Below are positions 17,510 to 37,727 of a DNA stretch of 64,000 nt, piece after piece. The notes under the pieces were generated by a model. The model saw only the letters and a program-made list of their open reading frames with translations, ran no database searches and had not been told where the DNA came from. The translations under genes and the position numbers were made by a program. Location: positions 1 to 64,000 of the IMG/VR virus record IMGVR_UViG_3300037452_000118. One strand, 5' to 3'. How positions within the stretch are numbered: position 1 is the first letter of the stretch; each line of letters begins with the position of its first letter. This stretch comes from a virus.

Positions 17510-17696
17510 TGTCGACGGCAATCCAGAGGGCCATCCAGGCCGAGAACGCCGCCATCGCAGAACGCGCGCACCAAGCCGACGTGAACGAAGCCCTGGATGC
17601 GGCCCAGCTTACTATCGAGGAATACTACAACGGCGACCGCGAGTGGGCCGAGGCTTGGCTGCTCAAGGCGGCGGCGGCCAACAAGGCGAAGTGAAG

Positions 17697-21080: not shown

Positions 21081-21605
21081 ATGACATATCGGGACGAGCT
21101 CACGAAGGCGATGACTTGGCTCGGCGGTCAGCCGCGAACGATCTTCCTTGGCCAGGCGATTCAATATCCCGGCACCGGGATGACGAGTTCTTTCGGTGGC
21201 GTTCCTTCCGGCAAGTTGCTCGAGCTGCCCGTGGCGGAGCAGATGCAGATGGGGATGTCGATCGGCCTCGCGCTCGCCGGCGATCTTCCCGTCAGCATCT
21301 ACCCGCGGCAAAACTTCCTGCTCTGCGCGATGGATCAGCTCGTGAATCATCTCGACAAAATCCCGATGTTCTCCGACTATCGGCCGAAGGTGATAATCAG
21401 GACGGCAGTATGCTCGCCGACGCCGCTTGATCCAGGGCCTCAGCACCTTTTCGAGCACAGCGATGCCTTCCGCGCGATGCTCAAAACCGTTACCGTCGTG
21501 CGGCTCTGGCGCGCCCGCGACATCATGCCGGAATACGAGGCGGCGCTCGCCCGGCCGCTGTCGACCATCATCACGGAATATCCGGAGCTCTACGATGCCG
21601 AATGA
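21081..21605 (+). CDS. TPP-dependent enzyme, E1-beta/transketolase pyrimidine-binding subunit
   Basis: FLGQ, ELPVAEQMQMGMSIGLAL, DQLVNH, GPQH. Confidence 0.82.
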   Translation: MTYRDELTKAMTWLGGQPRTIFLGQAIQYPGTGMTSSFGGVPSGKLLELPVAEQMQMGMSIGLALAGDLPVSIYPRQNFLLCAMDQLVNHLDKIPMFSDYRPKVIIRTAVCSPTPLDPGPQHLFEHSDAFRAMLKTVTVVRLWRARDIMPEYEAALARPLSTIITEYPELYDAE

Positions 21606-22809
21606 TTGGTGGTTTCCGACCGCGTTTGCGTCTTGGAAGCCGGGCGACGGATCGGAGGAAGACCAGGCGCTTCATCGCGTTCTGCGGTCTGGCCAGCTAA
21701 CTATGGGGCCGGAGGTAGCGGCGCTGGAGCGCGAGTTCGCCGATTTCCACGGCCGCAAGTACGCGATAATGACGAACAGCGGATCATCGGCAAACGAACT
21801 CGCGGTCGCCTGTCTTTTCCACAAGCACCGCAATCCGTTGCGCCGCGATGATGACGAATGGCGCGGGCGGCACGCTGTTACTCCCGCGTTGGCGTGGAAT
21901 ACGACTTACGGTCCATGCGTGCGAAACGGCTTGAAGCTGATCCTTGCCGACGCCGACGCGTCTTGGAACGCCCCGGCGGACAATCCTGATTGGGGATATG
22001 CCGCGGGATGCCCCCGCCTCATCGTTATCTGTCCGATACTTGGTAACCCTGCTTACGGCGCTGAGTGGGTACAAGTTGCCAAGGAAAGCGGCGCATATCT
22101 GGTCGAGGATGCGTGCGAGTCGTTTGGCGCGGTTGATCCCGAAGGGCAACGCTGCGGTACGCGCGGTCTTCTCAGTACGTTCTCGTTTTTCTATTCTCAC
22201 CAAATTTCTGGCATCGAGGGCGGCTGCGTCGTCACGGATGACGAAGAACTCGCAAACCTCTGCCGCATCCTGCGCGCCCATGGCTGGACCCGCGACGTGT
22301 GGCATGATCCGTTCGGGAACCCGTCGCGCCCTCCACGCTTCGAATTGGAATATGACTTTACTCATTTCGGGCACAACGTCAGGCCCCTGGAAATGCACGC
22401 CGCCGTGGCGCGCGAGCAACTGAAGAAAACGGCGACGTTCCAGGCTGCGCGGTGGTCCAACTACGTCGTCTTCCGCAATCTGGTCCGCGATTTGCCGATC
22501 AAACTGCCGCAGCTCCGCGGCGCGCCGAACCCGTTCAGCCTGCATTTCACCTGCGAGAGCGAGGAAGTGCGGCGCGATCTAGTCGTGGCCCTGCGCGCGA
22601 ACGGGATCGACTGCCGGCCGCCGACCGGCGGCAGTCTGAGGCTCCATAGGGTAGGTATGCCATACGCGAACCAGCAGACGCCGAACGCGGATGCTATACA
22701 TCGCACAGGTCTTTTTTTAGGTTGCGCCCCGTTCGAAATTTCCGAAAAAATAGAGAAGGCCGCGAAGGTGATGCGGGCGGTGTTCGACGCGAAGGCGAGG
22801 GCGGCATGA
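21595..22809 (+). CDS. DegT/DnrJ-family PLP enzyme, ColD/E1-type NDP-4-keto-6-deoxyhexose 3-dehydratase-like
   Basis: NSGSSAN, EDACES, FSFFYSHQI with His where aminotransferases have the catalytic Lys, EGG. Confidence 0.78.
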   Translation: MPNDWWFPTAFASWKPGDGSEEDQALHRVLRSGQLTMGPEVAALEREFADFHGRKYAIMTNSGSSANELAVACLFHKHRNPLRRDDDEWRGRHAVTPALAWNTTYGPCVRNGLKLILADADASWNAPADNPDWGYAAGCPRLIVICPILGNPAYGAEWVQVAKESGAYLVEDACESFGAVDPEGQRCGTRGLLSTFSFFYSHQISGIEGGCVVTDDEELANLCRILRAHGWTRDVWHDPFGNPSRPPRFELEYDFTHFGHNVRPLEMHAAVAREQLKKTATFQAARWSNYVVFRNLVRDLPIKLPQLRGAPNPFSLHFTCESEEVRRDLVVALRANGIDCRPPTGGSLRLHRVGMPYANQQTPNADAIHRTGLFLGCAPFEISEKIEKAAKVMRAVFDAKARAA

Positions 22810-22869
22810 ATAATTTACTTGTAACTGGCGACGAAAAGATATATAGGCTCCTAAATCCTAGGGGCTGCG

Positions 22870-23412
22870 ATGAAAACCGGCAGCAATAAGCGATACATTG
22901 GGCGCGTTGTCGGCCTCGTCGACAAAAAAACTGTTGAGAAAGCTAAAGCTGTCGGGATTGAAAATATCGCGGGCGGCTCCATCAATAAAAAAGACAAACG
23001 AGTTCGTATTTTCGTCAAGGGATTGTATCCAGGCGCCCACCCAAGTGGCGGATACGCGCTGCGGTCGCGGGTAGTTTGGTGGCTCAATACGGGAGAGGTA
23101 CTTCACGGTTTAGAAAAAAACATCCACCACAAAAATCACGTAAGGTCCGATGACAGATTTTCAAATCTGGAGAAAATAGGCCATCATGATCATACCAGAT
23201 TGCACAATCCAAAAACTGTTGAGATGGTTGAACGAACTTGCATTCATTGTTTGCATTTTTTCACGATAGAACGGTGGCGGTTGAAAGATGAGTCGAGAGG
23301 AAGATTTTGTTCGCAAAAGTGTTATCAGGCTCATCCGAAGAGTAAAGAATCCAGACAGAAGCAGGGTATATCCCTGCGTGCAAAATATGCGGAAGGATGG
23401 AGACCGCGATGA
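22870..23412 (+). CDS. Free-standing HNH endonuclease
   Basis: IHHKNHVRSDDRFSNLE..HTRLH, CxxC and FCSQKC; AT-rich. Confidence 0.8.
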   Translation: MKTGSNKRYIGRVVGLVDKKTVEKAKAVGIENIAGGSINKKDKRVRIFVKGLYPGAHPSGGYALRSRVVWWLNTGEVLHGLEKNIHHKNHVRSDDRFSNLEKIGHHDHTRLHNPKTVEMVERTCIHCLHFFTIERWRLKDESRGRFCSQKCYQAHPKSKESRQKQGISLRAKYAEGWRPR

Positions 23413-24332
23413 AAATAATCGTGTCGGGCGGGGCCGGATTTTTAGGAGCTATTCTCGTTCCTGCGCTTCTCGATGTTGGCCACAACGTCACGGTTTTAGA
23501 TTCTTTTCGGTGGGACCAGAACAGCCTCGCGCACGTCTGCGCCGATCCAGGCCTTGAGATCGTGCGCGGCGACGCCCGCGACCCGCGCGTGCTCGGCCAT
23601 CTCCTGCCGCAGGCCGATTGCATCATCCCGCTCGCCGCCCTCGTCGGCGCACCGCTGTGCGACGCCGACCGGGAGGGCGCGATCAGCACCAACCTGGGGG
23701 CCATCGAAACGCTCTGCCGGACGGCATCGCGCGGCCAGATCATCCTCATGCCGACTACGAACAGCGGCTACGGCAACGGCGACTGGGTGACGGAGGACTC
23801 GCCGCTGAAGCCGGTCTCGCTCTACGGCGTCACCAAGGTGCAGGCGGAGCAGGCCGTCTTGGAGCGCGGCAACGCGGTCAGCTTCCGGCTCGCCACGGTC
23901 TTCGGCATGTCGCCGCGCATGCGTTTGGATCTGCTCGTAAACGACTTCGTGCACCGCGCCGTAAACGACCGCGCGCTCGTACTTTTCGAGGCGCACTTCA
24001 AGCGGAACTACATCGGAATCCGTGACGTCGCCCGCGCCTTCGTCCACGGCATCGACAACTTCGACCGGATGAAAGATCAGGCCTACAACGTCGGCCTCTC
24101 CGACGCCAACCTGTCGAAGATGGAGCTCTGCTCGGTCATCCAGAAGCACGTTCCCTCGTTCGTGTTCTATGAATCCGAGATAGGCTCCGATCCAGACAAA
24201 AGAAATTATTTGGTCAGCAACGCCAAGATCGAGGCCACGGGGTTCCGGCCGCTTACGTCACTCGACGACGGGATCGTCGAACTCATGAAGGGGATGCGGA
24301 TGATCAGCAACAGCAAGTACGGGAACATCTGA
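23409..24332 (+). CDS. NAD-dependent NDP-sugar epimerase/dehydratase (extended SDR)
   Basis: GGAGFLG, YGVTK, RLATVFG.SPRMRLDLLVNDF. Confidence 0.9.
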   Translation: MKIIVSGGAGFLGAILVPALLDVGHNVTVLDSFRWDQNSLAHVCADPGLEIVRGDARDPRVLGHLLPQADCIIPLAALVGAPLCDADREGAISTNLGAIETLCRTASRGQIILMPTTNSGYGNGDWVTEDSPLKPVSLYGVTKVQAEQAVLERGNAVSFRLATVFGMSPRMRLDLLVNDFVHRAVNDRALVLFEAHFKRNYIGIRDVARAFVHGIDNFDRMKDQAYNVGLSDANLSKMELCSVIQKHVPSFVFYESEIGSDPDKRNYLVSNAKIEATGFRPLTSLDDGIVELMKGMRMISNSKYGNI

Positions 24333-24361
24333 CGACTAGCTTCTGCTTAACAGGGACTATC

Positions 24362-25093
24362 ATGAGCGAAGATAAAACGGCCCTCTCCTATTGGTTTCCG
24401 AAGATCGCGGCGGCTGGCCTGCCGGTGCCGCGAACAAAGATTATTGAGATACCAAAGGAGGCACAGGAAAGCATCTGGAAATGGTTTGACGGCCAGTCCG
24501 GCAATGGCGCTGAAAAGCCGTTCCTCGCCGACCTAGCGGCGGCGGCGACCGAAATGGGATTTCCATGCTTCCTGCGAACCGACCATACGTCCAATAAGCA
24601 TTCTTGGCAGGAAACCTGTTTCCTCACATCGGCCGACAAAATCGCTCAGCACGTCTATAACCTCGCCGAATTTTCCGAGATCACCAACATGATCGGCATC
24701 CCTTGGAACACTTGGGTCGTCCGTGAATTTTTGCCGACGATGCCACTCGGCGTTTGTCCCGCCTATGGCAACATGCCGATCTGCCGCGAATTTCGATACT
24801 TTGTGGACGAGGGCAAAATCCGCTGCGTTCATCCCTACTGGCCTGACTATGCGCTGGAACAAGGCGGCGTTGATCTTGCCACGTTCGACTACAAAGCGCT
24901 CTGCGCCGGTCAGGTGCCCGGCTTGGATTGCCTCGCCGAAGAAGCTGGTAAAGCGGTCGGCGGTTCCTGGTCCATCGACATCCTCGAAACGCGCAACGGC
25001 TGGTACGTCACCGACATGGCCGAAGCGCATACGTCGTTTCATTGGGATGGCTGTGCGATGGCAACAGACAAGCGCCGCAAAGTTGCCGGTTAA
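24362..25093 (+). CDS. ATP-grasp-like protein
   Basis: FLRT..S.KH, VVREF, EFRYFV, WSIDI...WYVTD. Confidence 0.55.
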   Translation: MSEDKTALSYWFPKIAAAGLPVPRTKIIEIPKEAQESIWKWFDGQSGNGAEKPFLADLAAAATEMGFPCFLRTDHTSNKHSWQETCFLTSADKIAQHVYNLAEFSEITNMIGIPWNTWVVREFLPTMPLGVCPAYGNMPICREFRYFVDEGKIRCVHPYWPDYALEQGGVDLATFDYKALCAGQVPGLDCLAEEAGKAVGGSWSIDILETRNGWYVTDMAEAHTSFHWDGCAMATDKRRKVAG

Positions 25094-25110
25094 CTGAGGT
25101 TTAGACAAAA

Positions 25111-25983
25111 ATGCGCATCATCGTCGTCGGCGCCTCCGGGCTGATCGGCTCCGCCGTCGAGGCCGCAGCGCGCAAGGCCGGGCACGAGGTCGTCGGCACC
25201 TACGCGACGCGGCCGCGCGAGGGGCTGCTGCGGTTCGACGTGACGAAGGAAAACCTCCTCGACGTCGTCCCCGACCTCGGCGCTGACGACCGCGTGATGC
25301 TGATGTCGGCGGCGATCGATCAGGCGTGGGTGCAGGCGCACCCCGGCGAGTCGCACGCCGTCAACTACATCGGCGCCGTCGAGGTCGCCTCTGCGGCGCT
25401 GATGCGGGGGGCTTACCTCGTCTTCATGTCCAGCGAGGCGGTCTTCGGCATACCGGTCGGCGCGTACGGGTTCGGCGAGGACTCCGCGCCGGCGCCATTC
25501 GGCCTCTACGCCGAGCAGAAGGTCAAGGTGGAGCAGCGCCTCCCGCTCCGCGAGGCCTGCGTCGCGAGAGCCGGCCACGTCGTCGGCTGGGGCGCCGGGG
25601 ATACGCGGGACGCCGTTTCCGCGACCTACCGCGCGCTGCTCCAGCCGTACACGCGGATGGCCTACGACAACCTGTTCACGGTCACCGCCGTCGAGGACAT
25701 CGCCATGGGGCTCCTCCGTGCCGCCGAGCGCAGGACGTGCGGGGTGCTGCACCTCGCCGCCAACCCGCCAGTGTCGCGGACGCAGCTAGCGGACTGGATC
25801 AAGGCGTCGAGCCGGCACGGCGACCGGATGCGGTACCATCGCGTCCAGGTGGCGAGCCTGCCGATGGTCAGGGCGCCGCAGGCTTGGCTGCGCAGCGACC
25901 GCGCCGCGGAGCTCGGGCTGACCTTCGCGGAGCCGCGCTCCATCGTAGAGCGCAAAGTGGCGATCTTGGATCAGGAGATATGA
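25111..25983 (+). CDS. RmlD-like NDP-4-keto-sugar reductase (SDR)
   Basis: GASGLIG, SSEAVF, YAEQK. Confidence 0.8.
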   Translation: MRIIVVGASGLIGSAVEAAARKAGHEVVGTYATRPREGLLRFDVTKENLLDVVPDLGADDRVMLMSAAIDQAWVQAHPGESHAVNYIGAVEVASAALMRGAYLVFMSSEAVFGIPVGAYGFGEDSAPAPFGLYAEQKVKVEQRLPLREACVARAGHVVGWGAGDTRDAVSATYRALLQPYTRMAYDNLFTVTAVEDIAMGLLRAAERRTCGVLHLAANPPVSRTQLADWIKASSRHGDRMRYHRVQVASLPMVRAPQAWLRSDRAAELGLTFAEPRSIVERKVAILDQEI

Positions 25984-26207
25984 CGATGTGCGAAACTTGT
26001 GCGAACAAACTTCTGGAGCTGGCCGAAGCGGCGATGCCTCTTCCCGATCAAATGGGCGACGGGCGTGCCGCCAACACTCTGCGAGACGCGGCCAAGACTA
26101 TTCGTCCCATAGAAAATCTGGCTCTGCGCCAACTTGCAAACAGCACGCTCCCCAATGAGCTTGTTGGTATCAGGCTGCGTGAGATATTCGGCAACGGAGC
26201 GTAGAAG

Positions 26208-27308
26208 ATGGCCCGAGTTCTCGTCATCGGCGGCGGGTTCGCCGGCTGCATCGCGGCGCAGATGCTGGCGGGGCGCCACGACGTCACCGTCGTCGAGCGG
26301 GCGCCGTTCCTCGGCGGCAGCTGCAAGACGTTCACATGGGGCGGCCACCCCTACACGCTGGGGCCACGGCACTTCCTCACGAAGAACGAGGACGCCTGGA
26401 ACTACCTCGACAGGTTCTGCCCGATGCACCGGTTTCCCGGCCACGAGTTCCTGACCTACGTCGAGCGCGACGCGCAGTTCTGCCACTACCCGATCCACGA
26501 GGACGACGTCGAGGCGATGCCGGACCGCGACGCCATCCGCGCGGAGCTGGCGGCGTGCCCCGGCGCGGCGGGAGCGCGGAACCTGGAGGAATATTGGCTG
26601 CTCTCGGTCGGCCCGACGCTCTACGACAAGGTCGTCAAGAACTACTCGAAGAAGATGTGGGGGATCGAGAGCAACACCGAGATCACGGACTTCGGCTTCA
26701 CGCCGAAGGGCGTCGCGCTGAAGCGCGGGCCGGTCAAGGCGGCGTGGAGCGAGGCGATGTCCGGCTTCCCGAAGGCGATGAACGGCTACGACGACTACTT
26801 CGGCATGGCGACGAAGGACTCGAAGGTGTTCCTGGGCACCAACATCGACGATTTCGACATGCCGAATCGCAAGGTCAAGATCGCCGGCGAGTGGAGCGCC
26901 TGGGACGTCATCGTCAGCACGGTGTCGGTCGAGGTCATCCTCAAGAACGCGCTGGGGCCGCTGCGCTGGGCGGGACGCGACTTCCTCAAGGTCGTACTGC
27001 CCGTCGAGCATTGCCTCCCGAAGGACGTCTACTTCCTCTACTACGCCAACGCGGAGCCGTTCACCCGGATCGTCGAGTACAAGAAGTTCTACCGCTACGA
27101 GGCGCCGACGACGCTGATCGGCATCGAGATACCCTCGACGAAGAACAAGCTCTACCCGTTCCCGATGAAGCGGGACCAGGATTTGCACGCGGAGTACCTG
27201 AAGCTGCTTCCGCCGAACGTCTTCTCGACGGGCCGAAACGGCACCTACCGCTACATCGATGTCGGGGTTATGATCGAACAGGGATTCGAGATGTTCCGTG
27301 ACGTTTGA
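26208..27308 (+). CDS. UDP-galactopyranose mutase-like flavoenzyme
   Basis: GGGFAG, YSKKMWG, FTRIVEYK, YPFP, GR.GTYRYID. Confidence 0.8.
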   Translation: MARVLVIGGGFAGCIAAQMLAGRHDVTVVERAPFLGGSCKTFTWGGHPYTLGPRHFLTKNEDAWNYLDRFCPMHRFPGHEFLTYVERDAQFCHYPIHEDDVEAMPDRDAIRAELAACPGAAGARNLEEYWLLSVGPTLYDKVVKNYSKKMWGIESNTEITDFGFTPKGVALKRGPVKAAWSEAMSGFPKAMNGYDDYFGMATKDSKVFLGTNIDDFDMPNRKVKIAGEWSAWDVIVSTVSVEVILKNALGPLRWAGRDFLKVVLPVEHCLPKDVYFLYYANAEPFTRIVEYKKFYRYEAPTTLIGIEIPSTKNKLYPFPMKRDQDLHAEYLKLLPPNVFSTGRNGTYRYIDVGVMIEQGFEMFRDV

Positions 27309-27874
27309 GCTGTCTCCTAGCGCCGAAAAACGCTAGTGAATGGCAATAAGGTGCCTCCTATGAAGGCTGGAGGCGGGACTGCCAGGATCGGCCCCGGATC
27401 AAGGACCAACAGGGGCACCTAATTTGTTCCGCGACGTATAGGAGGGATCATGACCCCGCAAGTCGAGATCGCTTTGGCTGCTCCAGTATTCGATCCAGAG
27501 CGCCAGATCACTACCAAGTTTTTCTGGTATCCTGAGCGCCTGATCAGCGCCGGGCTGACCTGCAACATCGGGATGGAATGAAGCCGCTATGCCGGAGGCA
27601 GGCCGCTTTGGCAGCTCAGCCTTTCCTACCACGATCCCGAGACAGGTAGGCCGGTGCCGGTGCTCCGTTGGAGCCCAACGAAATGGCGGAAGGCGGAAGA
27701 ATTGAGAGATCGCATCATGCGCGGCGTCGGCACGGACGAGGAATGGGTAACCGAGGAAATGTCGGCGCAATTTGGAATGAGAGCTTACGCCGTTCACTAT
27801 CGGCGCCCGCTGCGCATCGACGAAATCGCGCGGATGGCGCCGACTACTGAAGTCAGAGAGAGGCCTGGAAGACC

Positions 27875-29680
27875 ATGACCGCGCTGCCTGCCGTCAACCT
27901 AGCGCCGGACCGCGACAAGGTGGCCGCCTTTTTCGCGCGGTATTTCCCGCGCAACGTCCGGCGCGTGCTGCTGGTCAACCCGCCAGACGCCGACTCCAGC
28001 CTGTTCCGCATCGAGACGGCCAAGCGCGGGCGCTATACCAACTACCCGCCCTATGGGCTCGGCGTGCTGGCGCAAAATCTCCGCGACGTCGGTGTCGACG
28101 TACGGCTGATCAATTTGAACCACATCGTGCTGAAGGCGGCGCGGTCGGGCGGCGCATTCGACTTCGACAAAACGTGGCAGGACGCGCTGTGGGCCGAGAT
28201 CGGGGACTTCGACCCCGACCTGGTCGGCGTCACCTGCATGTTCACGATGACGCATACGTCCTTCAAGCGGGTCTGCGAGTACGCCGCCAAGGAGTGCGGC
28301 GCCGTCGTCGCCATCGGCGGCGTGCACGTCACCAACGACGTCGAGCGCGTGCTGGACGACGTGCCCCACGCCCGCGTCGCTTTCCTACGCGAGGGCGACG
28401 TGGCCATCAAGAGCTTCGTCGCCACCGCCAACGGGGGCGCCCTCGGCGGGATGGGCCAGGTCATCCTCGACGACGGCGCCGAGCGGTTCCGCTTCACCGC
28501 CGAGCGCCAGCCGGGGGAGGACGAGATCGACGTGCTGCCGGCCTACGACCTCTGCGACATCGGCGAGCTGTCCCAGCACGGCACCGTCGGCGCCTTCTAC
28601 TGCTTCAAGCCGAAGGGCGCCCGCTTCGCTACGGTGCTGTCTAATCGCGGCTGCCGGGCGCAGTGCACGTTCTGCAGCGTCCGCAACTTCAACGGCAAGC
28701 GGGTGCGCCAGCGCAGCGTCGGCTCCGTGCTCGACGAGCTCCAGCTGCTCGAGGAGGTCCACGGCATCGACCACGTCATGTGGCTCGACGACGACCTGCT
28801 CAAGGACCACGCCCGCGCGATCGCGCTGTTCGATGGCAAGGTATCCCGCGGCCTGAAGATGACGTGGGACGCGACCAACGGGCTGATCGCGGCGTCGTGC
28901 ACCGACGAGGTCGTCGCGGCGATGGCGGCGTCGGGCTGCATCGCCGTCAACATCGGCATGGAGTCCGGCTCGCCGGAGATCCTGCGCAAGGTCAAGAAGC
29001 CGGGGACTGTGGAGAACTTCGTCGAGGCCGCTGACATCCTGCGGAAATTTCCGCAGATACACTCCAGCGTCTTCCTCATGGTCGGCTTCCCCGGCGAGAC
29101 GATGGCCCAGATCACGCAGACGATCGACGTCGCGAGGCGCATGGACATGGACTGGTACCGGATCAGCCCGGTGCAGCCGCTGCCGAACACGCCGATGTAC
29201 GACGCGATGGTCGAGCAGGGCCTCGTCCAGGCCGTCGGCAGCAAGGAGCTGCGCTTCATGGGCGGCGCCTACGGCAAGCAGGCCGAGATCGAGCAGGGCC
29301 AGCGGATGACGACGGGGAGCTTCAAGGAGGCCTTCGCCGCGATCGCGCCGGGCGACGTGCCGACCGAGGACCAGATCACCGACATCTGGTTCTACATGAA
29401 CTTCCACCTCAATTTCCGCCGGCTGTTCGACGAGGACCGGCCGGTGAAGGTCGAGCAGCAGCTCGCCCACCTCCGCGCGCTGTCCGACGTCATCTCGCCG
29501 GAGAACGGCTTCGCGCTCTACTTCACCGCATACCTGCAGCGGAAGTTCCGCAGCGCCGTCCAGGACGGGCTGACGGACCGCCTGCGGGCGCGGCTGGACA
29601 CCTCGCCGTACTGGCGCGACCGCTTCGCGGCGTTCGATCTCAACGTGGACGATCTGATCCCTCGTGCGTCGGCGAAATAA
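27875..29680 (+). CDS. Second cobalamin-binding radical SAM enzyme
   Basis: YPPYGLG, GGVHVT, RGCRAQCTFC, GMESGS, GFPGET. Confidence 0.88.
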   Translation: MTALPAVNLAPDRDKVAAFFARYFPRNVRRVLLVNPPDADSSLFRIETAKRGRYTNYPPYGLGVLAQNLRDVGVDVRLINLNHIVLKAARSGGAFDFDKTWQDALWAEIGDFDPDLVGVTCMFTMTHTSFKRVCEYAAKECGAVVAIGGVHVTNDVERVLDDVPHARVAFLREGDVAIKSFVATANGGALGGMGQVILDDGAERFRFTAERQPGEDEIDVLPAYDLCDIGELSQHGTVGAFYCFKPKGARFATVLSNRGCRAQCTFCSVRNFNGKRVRQRSVGSVLDELQLLEEVHGIDHVMWLDDDLLKDHARAIALFDGKVSRGLKMTWDATNGLIAASCTDEVVAAMAASGCIAVNIGMESGSPEILRKVKKPGTVENFVEAADILRKFPQIHSSVFLMVGFPGETMAQITQTIDVARRMDMDWYRISPVQPLPNTPMYDAMVEQGLVQAVGSKELRFMGGAYGKQAEIEQGQRMTTGSFKEAFAAIAPGDVPTEDQITDIWFYMNFHLNFRRLFDEDRPVKVEQQLAHLRALSDVISPENGFALYFTAYLQRKFRSAVQDGLTDRLRARLDTSPYWRDRFAAFDLNVDDLIPRASAK

Positions 29681-29681
29681 A

Positions 29682-30668
29682 ATGCTTCTCGTGAAAACAA
29701 AAGCGGCACCAAGCGCGATTCACGGCACGGGGCTGTTTGCCGACGAGCCCATAAAGCGTGGCGCGATCGTCTGGCGCTTCGACGACAGCACGGAAGAATC
29801 GTTCAGCCCCGAGGAAGCGGAAGCGCTGCCGGAACCGAAACGCACGAGGGTTCTGAGCCTCGTGCACTCGTACATCAGCAACCCGGACGGGCGGTTTATC
29901 CTGAGCAAGGACGACGCGATCTACTTCAACCACTCGTTCGCCCCGAACGTCGTGGAGACCGGCGACGGCCGGTGCGCGGCCCTGCGCGACATCCCCCGCG
30001 GCGAGGAGTTGACCATCGACTACAGGGACTATGCCGAGGACAATCCCCTGAACTTCGAGGTGGCAATGAGCGACGAACTAAGATTCGATCCTTCGCGCTT
30101 CCGCTTGGACGCCGACGCCCGTTCGCTGTCCTATTGCAGCCTCGACGCCACGGTCGGCGTAGACGACAGGCTGGTCGACACGCTGGTCGCGGAGTCAGAG
30201 CGCCGCGGCGGCGTCAACGCGCGGGTCTGCCTGCACACGTCGCCGGAATCCAACTTCCACGAGATGGTCATCCTGGAGCGCCGGGGCTACTACTTCCCGC
30301 CGCACCGGCACACCAACAAGGCGCAGTCCTGCAACATCCTGCGCGGCGAGGCGGCCGTGTTCGTCTTCGACGACGCCGGCAACGTGAAGCGCACCTGCGT
30401 CCTGGGGCGCGACGGCAACCTGATCTTCAGGATCGGCGAGGAGCGCTACCACCTCACGCTGCCGCTGACGGACTTCATCGTCTACCACGAGGGCAAGCCC
30501 GGCCCGTTCGAGCGCGAGGGCGACAGCATCTACGCGGAGTGGGCGCCGAAGCGCGAGGACAAGGAGGCGGTCGCGAAGTATCTGGACCATCTCCGCCATT
30601 TCGTCGAGCCGCGCGTCGTGAAGGGGCCGATCATCGGCGACCCGCAAGAGCCGCCAGACGTGCCGTGA
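29682..30668 (+). CDS. SET-domain protein fused in frame to a WbuC-like cupin
   Basis: HGTGLFA, YFNHSFAPN, GEELTIDY (SET); RVCLH, HEMVI, PHRH, HEGKPGPF (cupin). Confidence 0.72.
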   Translation: MLLVKTKAAPSAIHGTGLFADEPIKRGAIVWRFDDSTEESFSPEEAEALPEPKRTRVLSLVHSYISNPDGRFILSKDDAIYFNHSFAPNVVETGDGRCAALRDIPRGEELTIDYRDYAEDNPLNFEVAMSDELRFDPSRFRLDADARSLSYCSLDATVGVDDRLVDTLVAESERRGGVNARVCLHTSPESNFHEMVILERRGYYFPPHRHTNKAQSCNILRGEAAVFVFDDAGNVKRTCVLGRDGNLIFRIGEERYHLTLPLTDFIVYHEGKPGPFEREGDSIYAEWAPKREDKEAVAKYLDHLRHFVEPRVVKGPIIGDPQEPPDVP

Positions 30669-31666
30669 TGATGCGGCCGACCGTCGTCAAGATCGCCGCC
30701 TGGGGCGACCGCCATATTGAGTCGCTGCACCAGAACATCCTGCCTTGCCTGCTGGCGCCGCGGAACCTGCCGGCGCTGTGCGCGGCGTCGGAGACGGAGC
30801 TGATCCTCTACACCGACAGGCCGGCCAATATCGACCCTGAGATCCCGGGTTTGACGGTGACCGTCCGCGTGCTGGCGCCGCTGCCGGACGCCGGCGACCT
30901 GCCGGCGAACCGCAGGGTGCTGGCGCGGACCGACGCGGAGAGCGCCCGGCTCGCCGCGGCGAGGGACGCCGACTGGTTCGGCCTCCAGGCCGACACCTTG
31001 ATCAGCGACGCCTTTCTGCCCAGGGTCAAGGACCTGCTCGTCGCGTACCTCGCCGTGGCCGGGAGCCCGATCAGGACGGACGCCGACGCCCTGCGGGCGG
31101 CCGCCGGCGCGCGCCGCGCCTTCGACGCCGCCGACCTGCGCCGCCTCTCGATGGCCTGCCTGCACCCGGTGACGGCGGGCTACTTCGTCCGCGACCCGCC
31201 GGCCACGATCCCGGCCGACCCGCACCAGCTGCTGTTCCGCACCGCCAGCGGCTTCGCGGCGCGGACCTGGCAGTTTTGCCCGTTCGGCATCAGCCCCGAG
31301 GGTTTGCGGCCGATGATGACGTCCGACGAGGATTCGGAGCAGCCGATCGACGACGAGTCGACCATCGACTGCTACCTCGTCCAGAACCTGCCGTCGGCGC
31401 GGGTACGCTTCCACCGCCCGGCGACGGACGACTTCTACCTGACCAGCCTCGACGATCCGTCCGGCATCCCGAGGTTCGGCGAGTTCGAGATGTCGGCGGC
31501 CGGCGTCGCGGGCTCGATCCGCAAGTTCTCGCGGGACTACGGTGATGTCATCAACTACGGCGTCGCGCTTCGGCAGCGGTTCGCCTACCCGACGGAGGTC
31601 GCGCTGCCGGACAGCCTCGGCGAGGAGGAGACGCTGGAAGCGGTACGCAAGGCGCTGACGCCGTAA
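30668..31666 (+). CDS. Hypothetical protein, possible glycosyltransferase-like (paralog 1)
   Basis: N-terminal IAAWGDRHI..PCLLAPRNL..LYTD, shared with 32132 and 37724. Confidence 0.45.
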   Translation: MMRPTVVKIAAWGDRHIESLHQNILPCLLAPRNLPALCAASETELILYTDRPANIDPEIPGLTVTVRVLAPLPDAGDLPANRRVLARTDAESARLAAARDADWFGLQADTLISDAFLPRVKDLLVAYLAVAGSPIRTDADALRAAAGARRAFDAADLRRLSMACLHPVTAGYFVRDPPATIPADPHQLLFRTASGFAARTWQFCPFGISPEGLRPMMTSDEDSEQPIDDESTIDCYLVQNLPSARVRFHRPATDDFYLTSLDDPSGIPRFGEFEMSAAGVAGSIRKFSRDYGDVINYGVALRQRFAYPTEVALPDSLGEEETLEAVRKALTP

Positions 31667-32131
31667 AATTCGGTGTGGACGGCGGCCGTCAAAGAATGGA
31701 TAATTATACCTTCAGAAAGTTGTCACGGAAGCCAGCCCGCGCCCGCCAACTTCATAGGAGAGAACGATGTTCGTTGAGACTAAAAAGGACGGTGAGGCCC
31801 TACCGGTAACTCCGTCGGCGAAGGATGTTCTGGTCGCCGCCCGCGCAAAAATCGCCGAACCCGAAAATTGGTGTCAGGGCTGTCAAGGATTGGACAAGGA
31901 TGGCTGCGGCGTCAATCCGCTCGATTCCGACGCCGTGAAGCATTGTGCGCTCGGTGCGCTTTCTGCGGTCATCGGCAGCTACGTTCTTCCAACCCATCCA
32001 GCCCGCGTCGTTCTGCAACGCTGTGTCCCCGGTCCGATTGGCCCTTGGAATAATCGCCACTCACATACCGAAGTCGTCGCGGCCTTCGACGCTGCAATCG
32101 CGTGCATAAGCGGCCAAGCCCAAGGGGCAAC

Positions 32132-33052
32132 ATGAGATTCCGCTTCACCCTCGTGGTCTGGGGCGATTGGCACATCGGCCAGTTCGTCAGGCACGGCCTG
32201 CCCAGCCTGCGGGCGCCGGGCAACCTCGACGCGATCGACCACGTCGTTTCCGCGAAGACACGGCCGTCGGACCTGGAGCGCGTGCGCGCGGCGCTGGACG
32301 GCGTCAACGCCGAGATCGAAGCGCTGCTTCCCGACGACATCGGCTCCGACCAGGCGACCTGCAACACGGCGGTCTTCACGCACAACGTCGACGACCGATC
32401 CGCCGCCGCCCAGGCCGGGGAGGCCTGGGGACTGCTGTCGCCCGACATGGTGTGGGGCGAGGGAACGTGGGCGCACCACCGCGCCGCGCTGGAGGGCGGC
32501 GCGAAGGCGGTCTTCCGCCCGCTGCTGCGCGTCGACTCCGAACGCGCCGGGACGATCCGCGATTTCCGCAGACGCAGCCTCGCCGCGACCGCCTTGGAGC
32601 ACGAGCACGCGATCGCGCGGACGGACTACCGCGCCGGCGGGGAGAGGTTCTCGCCGCACGCCGAGATGATTATCTGGGAGGCGCCGGGTTGGCTGATCAA
32701 CCGGACCATCACCGCTGAAGTCCAGACCTGCATCCCGGCTGCGGTGCCGTTCAACTCGCAGGGTTTGTCGGCGCTGCCGCTGGACGGCGAGATGTGCGTG
32801 GTCCGCGACAGCGACGAGGCGATCGCGGTGGCGATGTGCCCGCCGGACAAGGACTTCGGCTGGCTGCAGGGGACGCGACCGCTCGATGTCGACCTTGTCC
32901 GCGGTTTCCTGCGGTCCTACAACTCGCCGGCATCGAGGAACATCGCGCGCCAATCCTACCACCTGCATGCGGGCGACATCGTCGATGCCGAGATATGGAA
33001 AACGGTATTAGATCGTAGATCAGACGATTTCATCACGGAGGTCTTCGCGTGA
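32132..33052 (+). CDS. Hypothetical protein, possible glycosyltransferase-like (paralog 2)
   Basis: LVVWGDWHI..PSLRAPGNL. Confidence 0.45.
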   Translation: MRFRFTLVVWGDWHIGQFVRHGLPSLRAPGNLDAIDHVVSAKTRPSDLERVRAALDGVNAEIEALLPDDIGSDQATCNTAVFTHNVDDRSAAAQAGEAWGLLSPDMVWGEGTWAHHRAALEGGAKAVFRPLLRVDSERAGTIRDFRRRSLAATALEHEHAIARTDYRAGGERFSPHAEMIIWEAPGWLINRTITAEVQTCIPAAVPFNSQGLSALPLDGEMCVVRDSDEAIAVAMCPPDKDFGWLQGTRPLDVDLVRGFLRSYNSPASRNIARQSYHLHAGDIVDAEIWKTVLDRRSDDFITEVFA

Positions 33053-34167
33053 ACCTGCACCTCGCGTCAGACCTGCTCCTGGACAAGCATCTTCCGGAGC
33101 CGGAGCCTGTCCCCGACAAGGCGGCCTACCTCCGCGAGCGCGAGGCCTGCCTGGCGCTGTCGCCGGCGGCGCGCGAGAACTGGGAGCGCTACGAGCGCTC
33201 GACGAGGCGCGAGGCGGAGCTGGACTACCTGCCGGTCCGGCTCGACGTCGAGAACGTCAGCCGCTGCAATTTTCGTTGCACCATGTGCCAGGTCAGCGAC
33301 TGGCCGAAGGGCCAGCGCGCCGCCGACATGAGCCTCGACGACTTCAAGCGGCTGCTCGACGAGCAGGTCGGAGTCGTAGAGCTGAAAATCCAGGGCTTCG
33401 GCGAGCCGACGATGGGCGCCCACTATTTTGAAATGATCCAATACGCGAGGGCGCGGCGGATATGGGTGCGCACCATCACCAACGCCTCGCGGCTGCATTT
33501 GAGAAACACGTTTCAAAAGTTGGTCGATACCGACGTGAACGAAATCCAAATATCAATAGACGGCGCAACGAAGGAAGTCTTCGAGGGCATCCGGCGCGGC
33601 TCGGTGTTCGAGCAGGTCGTGAAGAATTGCGCGCTGATCAATGGCTATGCAAAAGCCCAGGGCAAGCTACGAACCAAAATGTGGACTGTCGTGCAACAAA
33701 CCAACGCGCACCAGCTCGACGACCTGGTCGACCTCGCCTACGACGCCGGCTTTGCGCATTTGGTTTTTTCATTTGAATTGATTGATTTTGGGCAGCCGAA
33801 ATGGAAGGAGACGAACGATGCCGCCTCGGTCGCGGATCGGATAAGCCTCGCGGAATGTTGGCGGCTGCACCATCGCGCCAAGGCGCTCGGCGTCCGATTG
33901 GGTTTTTGGTTTGCCAACGAACGCTATAGCTATGAGGCGGGCAACCCGGAAAAGCTATGCTCGTGGCCGTTTCAGTCTGCCTACATCTCGTCCGACATGA
34001 AAATCGTACCGTGCTGTATAATTGGAAACCCCGAAGTTAGCAATTTCGGCGATGCCCGCAAGCTCACTGAACTTTGGAATGGCCCCGCCATCAAGGCTTT
34101 CCGTGAGGGTCATTTGACGGGGTGTGTTCCGGATATTTGCAGGTCCTGTTATAAGGGGAATCGCTGA
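33049..34167 (+). CDS. Radical SAM enzyme with SPASM/twitch domain
   Basis: CNFRCTMC, GFGEP, ISIDG, CSWPF, VPCC, CRSC. Confidence 0.9.
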   Translation: MNLHLASDLLLDKHLPEPEPVPDKAAYLREREACLALSPAARENWERYERSTRREAELDYLPVRLDVENVSRCNFRCTMCQVSDWPKGQRAADMSLDDFKRLLDEQVGVVELKIQGFGEPTMGAHYFEMIQYARARRIWVRTITNASRLHLRNTFQKLVDTDVNEIQISIDGATKEVFEGIRRGSVFEQVVKNCALINGYAKAQGKLRTKMWTVVQQTNAHQLDDLVDLAYDAGFAHLVFSFELIDFGQPKWKETNDAASVADRISLAECWRLHHRAKALGVRLGFWFANERYSYEAGNPEKLCSWPFQSAYISSDMKIVPCCIIGNPEVSNFGDARKLTELWNGPAIKAFREGHLTGCVPDICRSCYKGNR

Positions 34168-34177
34168 ATCAACTCTA

Positions 34178-34207
34178 TTGACTTATAATTATCGCGTGGT
34201 GTAGGAA
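34178..34207 (+). promoter_or_regulatory. Candidate sigma70-type promoter for the RAMP cassette
   Basis: TTGACT at 34178 and TATAAT at 34184 in an AT-rich gap; the -10 assignment is ambiguous. Confidence 0.35.
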
Positions 34208-34215
34208 TGGTTCCT

Positions 34216-34368
34216 ATGAGAACCACGCACAAGCAGACGATTACCTTCACGAAACCAGAGATCGACTACCTGCGGATCGAGGCTAAACGCCTCGGCATAT
34301 CCGTGGCCGATCTTGTGCGGCGGATCATAGATCAGCACCAAGAGAGCCAAAGGAAAGCAGCAAAATGA
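34216..34368 (+). CDS. Ribbon-helix-helix (CopG-like) protein, 50 aa, not in the ORF track
   Basis: Manual translation MRTTHKQTITFTKPEIDYLRIEAKRLGISVADLVRRIIDQHQESQRKAAK; stop overlaps the next start (ATGA). Confidence 0.75.
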   Translation: MRTTHKQTITFTKPEIDYLRIEAKRLGISVADLVRRIIDQHQESQRKAAK

Positions 34369-35177
34369 ACAAACCAATCCAAGCCGAAGAGGCCGTTACC
34401 GTTGCCGAGATACAGATGACCGAGATGAGCTTCAACATCGTCGGGACATCCCCTCTCGTGATCCATGCTATGAGCGCGAAGAGCAAAGGCTCTCTGCTCT
34501 TTCCATCTCCGCGCAAGAATGCGACGGAGCGAGCGACGACGATGAAGCACGAACCATATGAGGAGTTTCTCGGCGCTTGCTATCGCTTCAGGGACGCCGA
34601 CAAATCGCCGACCCGGCTCTATATGCCGGCCGGAGCTTTTCATGCCGCGATGGCCAACTCCGCGATTGATATGGTCGGCGCTAAGAAAGCGCAGATCGGG
34701 CGCTTGACTACGGTACCCGGCGGCAAGATTCCAATCTTCGGTGTGCCGCAACTCTGGATGACCACCGTCAGGTCGAGCGACATGGCGCGAACACCGGACA
34801 TTCGCACGCTGCCGATCCTGCCGTCATGGTGCGCCACGATCACGGTGCAGTTCGTCGGTAGCCTGATCAAGCAGCAGTCGATCGCCAATCTGCTCGCTGC
34901 CGCTGGCGTCATCATTGGTATCGGTGACGGGCGCCCAGAGAAGGGCAAATTGTCGATGGGCCAGTTTCGCCTTTGCTCCGACGATGATCTAGAGTTTTTG
35001 CGGATCGTGAAGCAAGGCGTAACCGCGCAGGATAAGGCGCTTGCCGACCCGGCGACTTTCGACGAGGAAACTGCAGAACTTTGGGATTGGTTCACAAAAG
35101 AAAAAACCAAACGGGCGGCGGCTCCGGCGTCAATACCGAAGCGCCCCCCCCAAGGCAGAGCATGCAGCGCGAGCTAA
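34365..35177 (+). CDS. Stand-alone RAMP/Cas7-like RNA-binding protein (Vipr-like effector)
   Basis: N-terminal strand FNIVGTSPLVIHA, LYMPAGAFHAAM helix, C-terminal Gly-rich loop AGVIIGIGDGRPEKGKLSMGQF; directly followed by a 5-nt-periodic array. Confidence 0.72.
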   Translation: MNKPIQAEEAVTVAEIQMTEMSFNIVGTSPLVIHAMSAKSKGSLLFPSPRKNATERATTMKHEPYEEFLGACYRFRDADKSPTRLYMPAGAFHAAMANSAIDMVGAKKAQIGRLTTVPGGKIPIFGVPQLWMTTVRSSDMARTPDIRTLPILPSWCATITVQFVGSLIKQQSIANLLAAAGVIIGIGDGRPEKGKLSMGQFRLCSDDDLEFLRIVKQGVTAQDKALADPATFDEETAELWDWFTKEKTKRAAAPASIPKRPPQGRACSAS

Positions 35178-35185
35178 CGGCTCTT

Positions 35186-36059
35186 GAAATCCAGTCCAGT
35201 TGGGACACGATAGCCCAGTCATATCTCGATGTGACGAGATACGACTAGATGCGACCGGGACCAACAAGACTTGATCGGTCAAGATGCGAACAGTCTTGAT
35301 GCGACGGGACCGGATATGATCCGATGAGCCGTGACTGGACCAACGCGACTAGACCGGACGCGACGCGATACGATCTGGCTAGATACGATGAGACCAATGC
35401 GATGCGTTTGGCCGAGTTCGGACGCGACATGATCCGCCGTGATGCGCTTTGCCAAGACGCGACCAACATGATGAGCCGTGACCAGCCACGATCAGACCCG
35501 ACGGGCCGGAGCGCGACTTGCTCAGACCAACAAGACCTGCCGAGCCGCGATCGGCCGCGCTGCGATACGATTGGACAGGACGTGTTTTGTCCAACATGAC
35601 CCGACTAGCGATGACGAGCGGTGCCGGGCCATGACGAGACCAACAAGCCAAGTCTGGACGTGCTCGGACGGAATATGATCGGACTGGACAAGACCAACAC
35701 GACAAGACTGGAGACGACGTGCGGAGCCGGGACCGGCCGCGACAACGCTGGACCTGACCAACGGGCCTAGAAGGGACCGGATTAGCAATGCCGTGGCGAG
35801 ACGGGACCGACAAGTCACGATCAGCCAAGTCCCGAGGAGCCAACGCGAGATCGGACATGCCAAGACCAACGAGGTTTGCTCAGATGAGCGAAGCCGCGAC
35901 GTGATCGGCCAAGACGTGACCAACGTGACTGGCTATGCCGAGATTGGCCCGGACCAGATGCCTTGGGACGAGACTTGAAATGCCGAGACCAACGAGCCGC
36001 GATGTGACCTGACGCGCTATGCCGCGATCAGTAGCGATGAGATGGGATAAGTTGCCAAC
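35186..36059 (+). ncRNA. Array of ~14 putative guide units, each n x (NN-GHY) + CAAC (VIPR-like RNA array)
   Basis: Twelve clean units between 35266 and 35993 have lengths 79,54,69,64,64,49,54,64,49,59,54,69 (all 5n+4); by hand count 131/136 triplets begin with G and 78/136 are GAY; first and last units are degenerate. Confidence 0.85.
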
Positions 36060-36076
36060 CAAAGAGGAGGTTAAAA

Positions 36077-36571
36077 ATGTCGACCATGAAAATCCGCGCT
36101 GCGGCGATCAAAGCGATCGAGGATGAAGCCGGCAGAGTGACGGCGGAAGCGCTGGTATTGGCGGCGCGCGATCAAACCCATCCGCTGCACAAGGAGTTTC
36201 CCTGGGACGACAAAAAGGCGGCGCACCAGCATCGCCTCGATGTCGCCCGCCGTATAATCGCCAGCGTAAGGGTAACCATCACAACTACAACCAAGAAGGT
36301 AACCTGCGTTGGCTATGTCAGGGATCCTGAAGCCGGGCTACGACAGGGCTACGTCAGCACCGTCAAGCTGCGTACTGAGGCCGATGCTGCGCGGGAAGCC
36401 CTCGGCGCGGAGATCGCCAGGGTACAGAGCATTTTGGAAAGAGCGAAGGAACTCGCTGCAGGCCTCGAGCTTGACGAGGATTTTCAATTGTCTCTCGCCG
36501 GCGCCTTGGATTTTTCCAGCCGGATGCGAAAAGGACTCGGTTTTCCAGGAGATGGAAGAGCCTTGCAATAA
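36077..36571 (+). CDS. Accessory protein of the RAMP cassette (phage hypothetical protein)
   Basis: Strong GAGGAGG RBS; HPLHKEFPWDDKKAAHQHRLDVARRII motif; lies between the two arrays. Confidence 0.7.
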   Translation: MSTMKIRAAAIKAIEDEAGRVTAEALVLAARDQTHPLHKEFPWDDKKAAHQHRLDVARRIIASVRVTITTTTKKVTCVGYVRDPEAGLRQGYVSTVKLRTEADAAREALGAEIARVQSILERAKELAAGLELDEDFQLSLAGALDFSSRMRKGLGFPGDGRALQ

Positions 36572-36580
36572 AGCCTAAAC

Positions 36581-36709
36581 GTACTGTGCCGTGTCACGTT
36601 ACGACATGATCGGACACGATCTGACGAGACCAACGCGACCTGACTCGTCTTGTTGCGGTGAGGCATGACATGATGCGATTTGTCGCGATCCGACTAGCCG
36701 CAGCAAGAT
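36581..36709 (+). ncRNA. Second short NN-GHY array (2 units)
   Basis: Unit 36581-36634 (10 pentamers + CAAC), then 14-15 pentamers from 36635. Confidence 0.78.
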
Positions 36710-36725
36710 GATCAAAGGGAAGCTA

Positions 36726-37727
36726 ATGATACTCTCTGTCGGGGAATACGATGCCCTTGAGCAGGAAGCTCGCTGCGGTCTTTCTTTTTGCGAGCTCATG
36801 GCCTTCGCGCCGCGCACTTTCGACATGCTCGGCTTCCCGCATCGCGTCGAGGATGAGCGGGAGCTCGTCCGCTACGCCGATTGGAATCGGGACACCGGAA
36901 ATCAAGAATACTTTCGGCCCGGCCATTTCTTCGGCGGCCCGGCCGTGCAGACCGACTTCACCGCCGATGAGGTCGAGATGATGAATCGCGTCCGCGACCA
37001 GGCCGTCGCGGCGACCACCAAGCTCGGCCGGCCGGTGCGGCCGCTGTGCAGTCCCTTCGCGCAGCTCGGCCTGTTTCGCATCTTGGCCGCCATCGGATTG
37101 CCTGGGCTCCGCGTCTTCGAGGTCGGCCCCGGTACCGCCTATCTCGGCGCCATGCTCATCAACGAAGGCGCGAGCTATTATTCTTTCACCGACAACGCCC
37201 AGGCGCTTTTCCTTTGGCAATGTCGCTTGATGGCCGAGGTCGGGTATCAACCGACGTCGCGCGCTGGGCTTCCGTGGTGGGACTTCGCCCGCGGCGTCAA
37301 CCTTCTTCCGGTCGATGTCGTGGTCTCCAACACCAACCTCGGCGAGATGACCGGCGACGCGCTCAAGATCACGGCGCACCGCGCGCGGCAGATGCTGGAG
37401 AGATCGCCGCTTGGTCTCTTCCTGTTCGTCAACGTCGGGGCGCCGATGTACAATTCGGAGGAGGGCGTCGACCGCGAGCTGCGCCGTGCCGGCTTCAGCC
37501 TCGTCGTCAACCGCTTTTTCCGCGCCTACCGGGCGCCCAACTCCGAGCCGCTCCCGGAGGCGGCGCTGGCCTTGGAGTTCGGCATGCCGCTCTATAATCC
37601 AAGCGGCAGGCCTGGCACGGTGTCCGGTGGCGAGGCCGTGTACATCCCCGACGACCAGCGCCCGCTCGACCTCGACGTTACGGAGCTGCTGGAGGGGTGG
37701 CGCCCGCCGGTGAGGAGCAAGCCATGA
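36726..37727 (+). CDS. SAM-dependent methyltransferase, putative sugar O-methyltransferase
   Basis: VFEVGPGTAYLG, DVVVSNTNLGEM; sugar-cluster context. Confidence 0.65.
   Translation: MILSVGEYDALEQEARCGLSFCELMAFAPRTFDMLGFPHRVEDERELVRYADWNRDTGNQEYFRPGHFFGGPAVQTDFTADEVEMMNRVRDQAVAATTKLGRPVRPLCSPFAQLGLFRILAAIGLPGLRVFEVGPGTAYLGAMLINEGASYYSFTDNAQALFLWQCRLMAEVGYQPTSRAGLPWWDFARGVNLLPVDVVVSNTNLGEMTGDALKITAHRARQMLERSPLGLFLFVNVGAPMYNSEEGVDRELRRAGFSLVVNRFFRAYRAPNSEPLPEAALALEFGMPLYNPSGRPGTVSGGEAVYIPDDQRPLDLDVTELLEGWRPPVRSKP

Follow-up and report, generated by a model that had tools for sequence, protein, structure and literature searches.

The window analysed here, 64,000 nucleotides forming positions 1 to 64,000 of the virus record IMGVR_UViG_3300037452_000118, contains a locus of the Viral Interference Programmable Repeat (VIPR) type, in which one guide of a repeat array, referred to as guide 1, matches the active-site codons of bilC in a bacterial anti-phage operon. 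On the + strand, the locus consists of the vipr gene (34365–35177), encoding a Cas7-like RAMP protein of 270 aa, a main array of about 13–14 guides (35213–36050), a vap-like accessory gene of 164 aa (36077–36571), and a second short array of about two guides (36573–36726). VIPR systems combine the Vipr protein with guide RNAs (vrRNAs) and a vap gene, as given in the accessible parts of the preprints that describe them (10.64898/2026.04.26.720920; 10.64898/2026.04.26.720927; 10.64898/2026.10.15.759431). According to the text available from the first of these, the vrRNAs are built of GGY/NN pentamers, whose NN bases pair with double-stranded DNA and pass over one base in each unit, and the outcome is transcriptional silencing; targets usually lie in coding sequence, where the skipped base coincides with the wobble position (10.64898/2026.04.26.720920).

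Vipr proteins are minimal RAMPs with an RRM core, a G-rich loop and a thumb. The 270-aa Vipr matches phrog_4652 and no Pfam family. A profile of 31 homologues retrieves the PDB entry 36pp_D, 'SUSP1 Vipr protein' (E 2.8e-4, 23.2 bits), through an alignment limited to 50 residues (149–198) of the G-rich loop region; the single sequence reaches SUSP1 Vipr at E 0.17. The AF2 model has a pLDDT of 81.6, and with it Foldseek returns 32 PDB matches at E ≤ 0.001, the best being Csm3/Cas7 RAMPs (E about 1e-4, TM 0.34–0.42, query-normalised). Among the candidates scored, 606 Vipr homologues are found at E ≤ 0.001; 420 relatives occur in viral contigs, and a 5-nt periodic array adjoins vipr in 75 of the 80 viral loci kept. 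The 164-aa gene, which matches phrog_15946 and, beyond it, no Pfam or PADLOC family, has a homologue in 74 of 83 related loci, where it nearly always follows vipr immediately downstream, and is thus regarded as the accessory gene of the clade. Its single-sequence AF2 model (pLDDT 52.8) is too low in confidence for use. Judged by sequence comparison and predicted fold, vipr, the staggered vrRNA array and the vap-like gene together are classified as a member of the VIPR systems. No Rfam family is detected within 34000–37500, and a scan of the locus for consensus promoters and terminators gives no signal above shuffles.

The array DNA is non-coding and follows a strict 5-nt period over 35180–36070 and 36570–36730 of the + strand, with G autocorrelations at lags 5 and 10 of 0.45 and 0.36, respectively. 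A periodicity filter applied to the whole parent contig of 128,813 bp passes 35181–36081 and 36561–36701 and nothing else. A dynamic-programming parse resolves this region into pentamers with the scaffold G-[A/C]-Y-NN (GAC, GAT, GCC), as against the published GGY-NN. In the logo of 188 pentamers, G occupies position 1 in 94%, A (60%) or C (24%) position 2, and C (62%) or T (31%) position 3, giving Y in 93%, with positions 4–5 carrying about 0.06 bit. Since position 2 is A or C and not G, the scaffold counts as a 'related consensus' rather than as GGY. Each guide comprises 8–14 pentamers ending in GACCA and is followed by a 4-nt unit ACNN, so that the pentamer phase is shifted by −1 at every one of 14 junctions of the form G[AT]CC[AG]A[CT], mostly GACCAAC. 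Thirteen of these + strand junctions start at 35259, 35338, 35392, 35461, 35525, 35589, 35638, 35692, 35756, 35805, 35864, 35918 and 35987, and the fourteenth, in the second array, at 36628. In one reading of the parses, the last C of GACCAAC can double as the Y of the first unit of the next guide.

The close relatives L001, L005 and L125–L127 have the same GAC/GCC scaffold and the same junction between GACCA and ACNN. A metagenome search for close relatives yields just three short contigs, which share scaffold and junction and lack guide 1. Distant members of the Vipr clade carry the canonical GGY scaffold with a junction between GGCG and GTC. When the guides of the window are compared with their own contig under all skip rules, none rises above the shuffled null, indicating no self-targets; likewise, 386 guides from 80 related loci show no signal and no difference between skip rules when compared with those loci and with the phage contig.

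Guide 1 lies at 35466–35529 and reads AC-AT, gatGA gccGT gacCA gccAC gatCA gacCC gacGG gccGG agcGC gacTT gctCA, gacCA; its core of 11 units, GA GT CA AC CA CC GG GG GC TT CA, occupies 35470–35524 of the + strand. The initial annotation had read the variable dinucleotides of this unit, and of a neighbouring one referred to as guide 2, as the first two letters of codons, so that guide 1 would spell a JAB metalloprotease motif and guide 2 a segment of a ThiF/E1 enzyme. Both dinucleotide lists are exact in the sequence, and the decodings follow the standard code. In the parse, the leading AT of both units is a truncated junction unit and the final CA belongs to the constant GACCA. The first codon that had been read from AT as Ile finds no match at the target, nor does the terminal CA; the other 11 codons all do.

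To locate that target, the 11 full units of guide 1 were converted into an NNx pattern of 22 fixed bases, of which a 20-base version was used to scan a genome collection of 596 Gb containing one genome per species. Seven exact matches are found, where base composition predicts 1.1–2.7. Of these, six represent one and the same in-frame bilC site and lengthen to 22/22 matches, of which 0.07–0.15 would be expected. The seventh, in a Chitinophagales genome, is considered random because a stop codon adjoins it. The six sites are distributed over five alphaproteobacterial genomes: Sphingomonas (two metagenome-assembled genomes), Fulvimarina (two contigs of one metagenome-assembled genome), Novosphingobium resinovorum and Jiella pacifica. 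At every one of them the match is on the coding strand and in frame, the skipped base falls on the wobble position, and the encoded residues are G-D-V-H-T-H-P-G-G-A-F-Q-S (target peptide GDVHTHPGGAFQSEADRTNP). None of the 22 guide positions varies among the six sites, and 4 of the 11 skipped positions do.

The match is specific in both geometry and register. Skipping one base gives 22/22, and skipping 0, 2 or 3 bases gives 17, 14 and 16; pentamer positions 4–5 alone produce the match, the other registers reaching at most 18/22. Shuffled guides score no higher than 17/22 on the 40-kb contexts of the target. A mismatch-tolerant rescan of the five genomes recovers the same six sites and no others, with 0 matches for the reversed control, and in viral contigs the 22-base pattern is nowhere matched exactly. 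These results support the JAB reading of guide 1 and sharpen it to the codons of the HTH active site of bilC: the gapped search ends in codon register within a defence gene, and the D and Q of the actual peptide lie within the degeneracies of the earlier decoding. At the protein level, the guide 1 peptide is exact in 16 of 120 BilC homologues, and 78 of the 93 homologues that keep H-x-H-P score at least 20/22.

The six matches are homologous copies and count as one evolutionary event; given the chance expectation of 0.07–0.15, independent evidence was sought. Viral contigs were searched with the array form of the six-unit V-H-T-H-P-G core, and a single contig was obtained, that of the VIPR locus L057, whose Vipr is 43% identical to the Vipr of the window and whose scaffold is GGC. 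The guide concerned (9505–9564 of L057, on the contig of L132) reads CC GG TG GT TG AC TC GC AC AC CC AA on the array strand, and its reverse complement corresponds to [FL]-G-V-V-A-[DE]-V-[HQ]-T-[HQ]-P-G. It therefore addresses the bilC site of guide 1 from the opposite DNA strand, shifted five codons upstream, and reaches 8 guide bases beyond the six-unit search core. On the Bil loci it matches 21 of 24 bases at the DNA level, with skip 1 only, and 27 of the 120 best BilC homologues agree exactly with a run of ten contiguous units, VVADVHTHPG. The 1-nt skip rule is seen in two guides only, one from the window and one from L057.

A blind scan places both guides apart from the rest. When 337 guides in both orientations (674 tests) are compared with the 120 BilC proteins, scores of at least 0.9 are reached by guide 1 and the L057 guide alone, and the shuffled set gives 0 of 674 at ≥0.85. 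The same guides show nothing above the null on 119 BilB homologues. On 150 BilD representatives, scores of at least 0.85 occur in 6 real and 2 shuffled tests, with no signal except on a JAB-fused protein. This protein, P0376 (537 aa), is a BilD representative with a JAB-like DVHTHP segment, which both anti-bilC guides match at 20–21 bases; the arrangement suggests, from the sequence, a BilC–BilD fusion.

The gene hit by guide 1 belongs to a complete bilABCD operon. In the target locus L083, the PADLOC families BilA (2.1e-54), BilB (7e-65), BilC (9.5e-67) and BilD (6.1e-157) are all present in this order, as overlapping genes, and the target gene also matches Pfam Prok-JAB (1.7e-7). The metal-binding motif of JAB/MPN+ proteins is H-x-H ... 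S-x-x-D, and the corresponding HTH and SEAD are kept across the 120 BilC homologues inspected. Strong conservation marks the stretch around residues 100–112 of these homologues (P0121–P0240), CRARGLTVVGDVHTH ... QSEADRTNPMVAR. Within it, the five positions that follow HTH show unusual variability, with P/G/S/L/R/Q/D followed by G/A/R/S/E and others; they coincide with the 3' half of the guide 1 site, and their variability could represent either loop tolerance or escape. The named BilC homologues are all alphaproteobacterial, from Novosphingobium, Tsuneonella, Bradyrhizobium, Agrobacterium, Caulobacter and others. Chambers et al. have reportedly carried out a further study of this ubiquitin-like anti-phage system. 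In the Collimonas system, as described in the available portion of the source, Bil protects by conjugation of a ubiquitin-like protein onto the tail tip of the phage, BilC is a deubiquitinase, and disruption of its active site abolishes defence (Hor et al., 10.1101/2023.09.04.556158).

The six target loci are 84–92% identical in nucleotide sequence over at least 6.4 kb, across two orders. Jiella and Sphingomonas (L128–L131; G004:C13, G002:C6) have about 13 kb in common at 88–91%, a block that comprises bilABCD, an M78-UvrD-PD(D/E)XK protein whose best PADLOC family is GajB-like, a 318-aa open reading frame (ORF), an AAA_27 ATPase and a metallophosphatase. In Jiella, the block adjoins resolvase, PIN, HicB and SLT genes and a type IV secretion system gene of the VirB4 type. 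By this gene content and conservation, the target of guide 1 is a mobile defence island.

Guide 2 extends over 35594–35642 (AC-AT, gacCC gacTA gcgAT gacGA gcgGT gccGG gccAT gacGA, gacCA), with a core of 8 units, CC TA AT GA GT GG AT GA, at 35598–35637 of the + strand. It is a vrRNA of the same array, and its E1 reading is not supported, as no match rises above control in any set searched. In the six Bil loci its best score, 11/16, is at noise level; in the 40-kb contexts it is 12/16, with a shuffled maximum of 13, and on 150 diverse BilD representatives 13/16, with a shuffled maximum of 14. The five target genomes contain no match at ≤1 mismatch and six 14/16 matches, all outside E1 genes. In 401 alphaproteobacterial genomes there are 0 exact and 12 one-mismatch matches, compared with 13 for the reversed control, and the in-frame matches checked in alphaproteobacterial genomes lie in YbeY or unannotated proteins. 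Viral contigs yield 19 exact matches, about as many as estimated for a pattern of 16 fixed bases, and no E1 gene is among the sites; all belong to phages of 33–48% GC, 16 are interrupted by a stop codon when read in the guide frame, and the two in-frame ORFs are not E1. E1 families beyond BilD, such as Cap2 of the cyclic-oligonucleotide-based anti-phage signalling system (CBASS), were covered by the whole-genome pattern scans only. With 16 fixed bases, guide 2 is too short for these searches to reveal a target. The proposal that part of the array constitutes an anti-defence programme thus holds for one guide of about 15 and is not supported for guide 2.

The published mechanism of VIPR can be applied to this locus. 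Vipr protomers would polymerise along each vrRNA, gripping the conserved trinucleotide and presenting the two variable bases, which would pair with double-stranded DNA while every third base is skipped; the bound complex would then block transcription. Guide 1 would read codon positions 1–2 of D-V-H-T-H-P-G-G-A-F-Q at the catalytic HTH motif of bilC, and binding inside bilC would halt the transcription of this gene and of bilD, the E1 gene that overlaps it downstream. Provided that the vrRNAs are expressed and processed, binding and silencing of this kind would be expected to benefit the phage. It is therefore considered likely that the phage VIPR locus carries, in guide 1, a programme against bilC of the alphaproteobacterial bilABCD operon and silences host Bil defence. 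An Acb1 anti-CBASS domain and three DNA methylases encoded by the same phage provide supporting context. With one guide, one 32-bp site and one four-gene operon defined, the case is directly testable. On a wider scale, and more tentatively, VIPR arrays may in part be counter-immunity programmes, in which vrRNAs are directed at codon positions 1–2 of catalytic motifs in innate-immune genes of the host and silence these by RNA-guided DNA binding; such guides would have at least two origins, in distant VIPR lineages and one per strand, and the variability of BilC after HTH would represent escape. This extension is judged possible, at somewhat less than even probability.

Several observations weigh against the assignment of guide 1 to bilC. 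The guide was picked from about 15 because it is motif-like, a target is found for this one guide of about 15, and its score falls to 22/26 if the flanking AT and CA are counted as guide. Two other guides give 0 matches at ≤3 mismatches in the five target genomes, and two, as 20-base patterns, give 0 exact matches in viral contigs. The L057 guide, which has no perfect target at the DNA level in the sequences searched, finds 0 exact matches in viral contigs, and in the 401 genomes at ≤3 mismatches it finds 11 compared with 7 for the control, one of the 11 in a BilC gene. A lone exact match of 22 bases could also be a coincidence in 596 Gb, at the expectation given above, with the true targets of the array elsewhere; about eight guides of similar length could have been chosen, the six matches are one event, and the Chitinophagales match is plainly random. 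Such a coincidence is nevertheless very improbable, as the match keeps the reading frame and sits on a defence gene's catalytic motif in GC-rich Alphaproteobacteria, as a second guide, from a system whose Vipr is so distant, falls on the same site and continues to match past its search core, and as the shuffled null of the BilC scan is empty at the threshold used. An equally slight probability is given to guides 1 and 2 forming a joint programme against one ubiquitin-like operon, with guide 2 silencing its E1 through I-P-Y-I-D-V-G-M-D. The operon matched by guide 1 does hold an E1 gene, bilD, and its product carries a loosely similar segment, F-D-L-V-V-E-A-G-L-G, with variants RYVDAGIG and THIDVGLG among BilD homologues, where I-P-Y-I-D-V-G-M-D had been expected. 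Guide 2 misses this gene, however, staying at or below controls in the Bil loci, the target genomes, the 401 genomes and the BilD set, and its exact viral matches are mostly interrupted by stop codons and include no E1 gene, so that the expectation of both guides matching one operon fails.

Further points against the silencing of Bil by guide 1 concern the biology of the phage. The parent contig has terminal repeats, an estimated completeness of 100%, and portal and TerL genes; it has no match to an integrase or resolvase, and it represents a complete, probably virulent soil phage. Silencing by such a phage would have to contend with Bil proteins that predate infection, except where the operon is induced or the proteins turn over, and transcriptional silencing in a lytic cycle would leave the Bil proteins already present in place. 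Host clues from named phage records, TerL similarity and the target genomes yielded no phage host: the Vipr clade has 0 members among 50,697 named phage records, TerL shares only about 55% identity with its counterparts in Burkholderia, Bordetella and enterobacterial phages, and none of the five target genomes contains a Vipr relative. Among the sequencing runs containing the locus there is no RNA run. Moreover, the Bil island is itself mobile, and the aim could therefore be a rival element, with bilC serving as a conserved handle on the island of about 13 kb or on a conjugative element that carries it; this element would be a competitor of the phage for the same hosts, in line with published VIPR biology. 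The high identity of the target loci across two orders, the block common to Jiella and Sphingomonas and the resolvase, PIN, HicB, SLT and VirB4-type genes beside the Jiella island fit a conflict of this kind, as do the targets named in the accessible text of the VIPR preprint, namely satellites, prophages and other VIPR systems (10.64898/2026.04.26.720920). No other guide, however, rises above the shuffled null on the island or its 40-kb surroundings, both independent guides are directed at the catalytic motif of a defence gene and not at replication, transfer or regulatory genes, and the loss of bilC and bilD expression is not obviously harmful to the element. A rival element as the aim is accordingly rated unlikely, and the suppression of host Bil defence by guide 1 is retained as the probable function.

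Other parts of the phage genome contain additional features. Directly upstream of the VIPR locus, 17600–34170 (+) holds a long enzyme cluster with three radical-SAM enzymes, two with B12-binding domains and one with SPASM, together with a DegT aminotransferase, epimerases, reductases, a UDP-galactopyranose mutase and an ATP-grasp enzyme; this cluster may serve DNA or virion glycan modification. Between the cluster and vipr, a 53-aa ribbon-helix-helix-like ORF (34207–34368, +; weak NikA-like match, E 0.0034) ends inside the start of vipr and has no homologue in any of the 83 related loci. At 48554–55777 (+), an ORF of 2407 aa combines a portal domain (PF06381, 2.3e-67), a NUDIX domain and an Acb1 anti-CBASS domain (PF23474, 3.8e-29), and could be a polyvalent anti-defence protein delivered with the virion. 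Three consecutive DNA methyltransferase genes at 8287–14829 (+), two C5-cytosine and one N6/N4, probably have anti-restriction functions. A DnaB-like helicase with Toprim at 4011–6611 (+) contains a LAGLIDADG domain at residues 693–750, which may be an intein or a homing-endonuclease insertion. Identical pieces of the window region 34300–36800, not covering guide 1, are present in contigs of an independent soil-metagenome study (run X3), and by this sequence identity the phage or a near-identical strain recurs in soil samples.

Compared with known systems, the locus resembles published VIPR in being a minimal, phage-encoded locus with a RAMP protein related to SUSP1 Vipr, pentamers with hypervariable NN, a 1-nt skip at wobble positions, a small accessory gene nearby and a mostly viral location. 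It likewise has no self-targets on its own contig, as the available text reports for its own sets (10.64898/2026.04.26.720920). The scaffold differs, being G-[A/C]-Y, whereas the alternatives to GGY given in the accessible part of the literature are NNNGG, YNNNG and NNNNG. In type II (SUSP1-like) systems the repeats lead into an invariable structured 3' tail, which takes the form of a pseudoknot in the SUSP1 clade; the guides here lack a long structured 3' tail and are parted only by the 9-nt GACCAAC-NN junction, so the array does not have type II architecture. In staggered vrRNA arrays, each guide begins where the preceding one ends, the two overlapping by 1 nt (legend of fig. S18, 10.64898/2026.04.26.720920), and the −1 phase slip at every junction fits such an array, a likeness that extends as far as the description in this legend. 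Small-RNA sequencing confirmed the ribozyme-interspersed and single-vrRNA forms and not the staggered form, as stated in the portion of the text available (10.64898/2026.04.26.720920).

The predicted target forms the main departure. Targets in the accessible text on VIPR are satellites, prophages, other VIPR systems and host decoy sites, with viruses for the host-encoded types III and V, whereas here the predicted target is a bacterial anti-phage defence operon. Full-text literature searches, which did not cover supplementary target tables, found no VIPR guide against a host defence operon, and literature searches found no counter-measure against Bil. VIPR itself is already known; within the literature searched, a guide against a host defence operon is a new use of it. 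With Bil, the likeness lies in a target operon that has all four PADLOC families in the order bilA-bilB-bilC-bilD and in a guide placed on the BilC active site, and the difference lies in an alphaproteobacterial target clade whose defence role is putative, phage protection being known for the Collimonas system. Cas7 filaments form by polymerisation of the protein along a guide in which non-pairing positions recur periodically. The Vipr here shares with the class 1 CRISPR Cas7 backbone proteins (Csm3, Cmr4, Cas7-11) a RAMP fold with a G-rich loop; VIPR differs in its period of 5 nt with 2 pairing bases, compared with 6 nt and 5 pairing bases in Cas7, and the locus has no CRISPR repeats or cas genes, its guides being hard-wired in the phage genome.

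Guided counter-measures carried by phages have other parallels. The CRISPR-Cas system of phage ICP1 is said to act as a phage-encoded guided counter-measure against the Vibrio PLE island, and RNA anti-CRISPRs are phage decoys against host antiviral systems. In both, as here, the phage carries programmable guides or decoys against a host-resident antiviral element; in the present case, a VIPR complex would act as the silencing effector, and its target, an innate immune operon based on proteins, is neither a satellite nor a CRISPR system. 'Dummy' CRISPR RNAs are mentioned in a passage of a second VIPR preprint. The locus also supplies a naturally occurring case in which the target of a G-[A/C]-Y array is identified, so that for this scaffold variant both the NN register and the 1-nt skip rule are fixed. 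As the wobble bases are skipped, escape by synonymous mutation would be hard, which is illustrated by two guides on the same catalytic motif. In conclusion, if a virulent phage does turn guide 1 on the Bil operon of its host, VIPR, described in 2026 as an RNA-guided weapon between mobile elements, is also an anti-defence mechanism, one that acts by programmable transcriptional silencing instead of a protein inhibitor.

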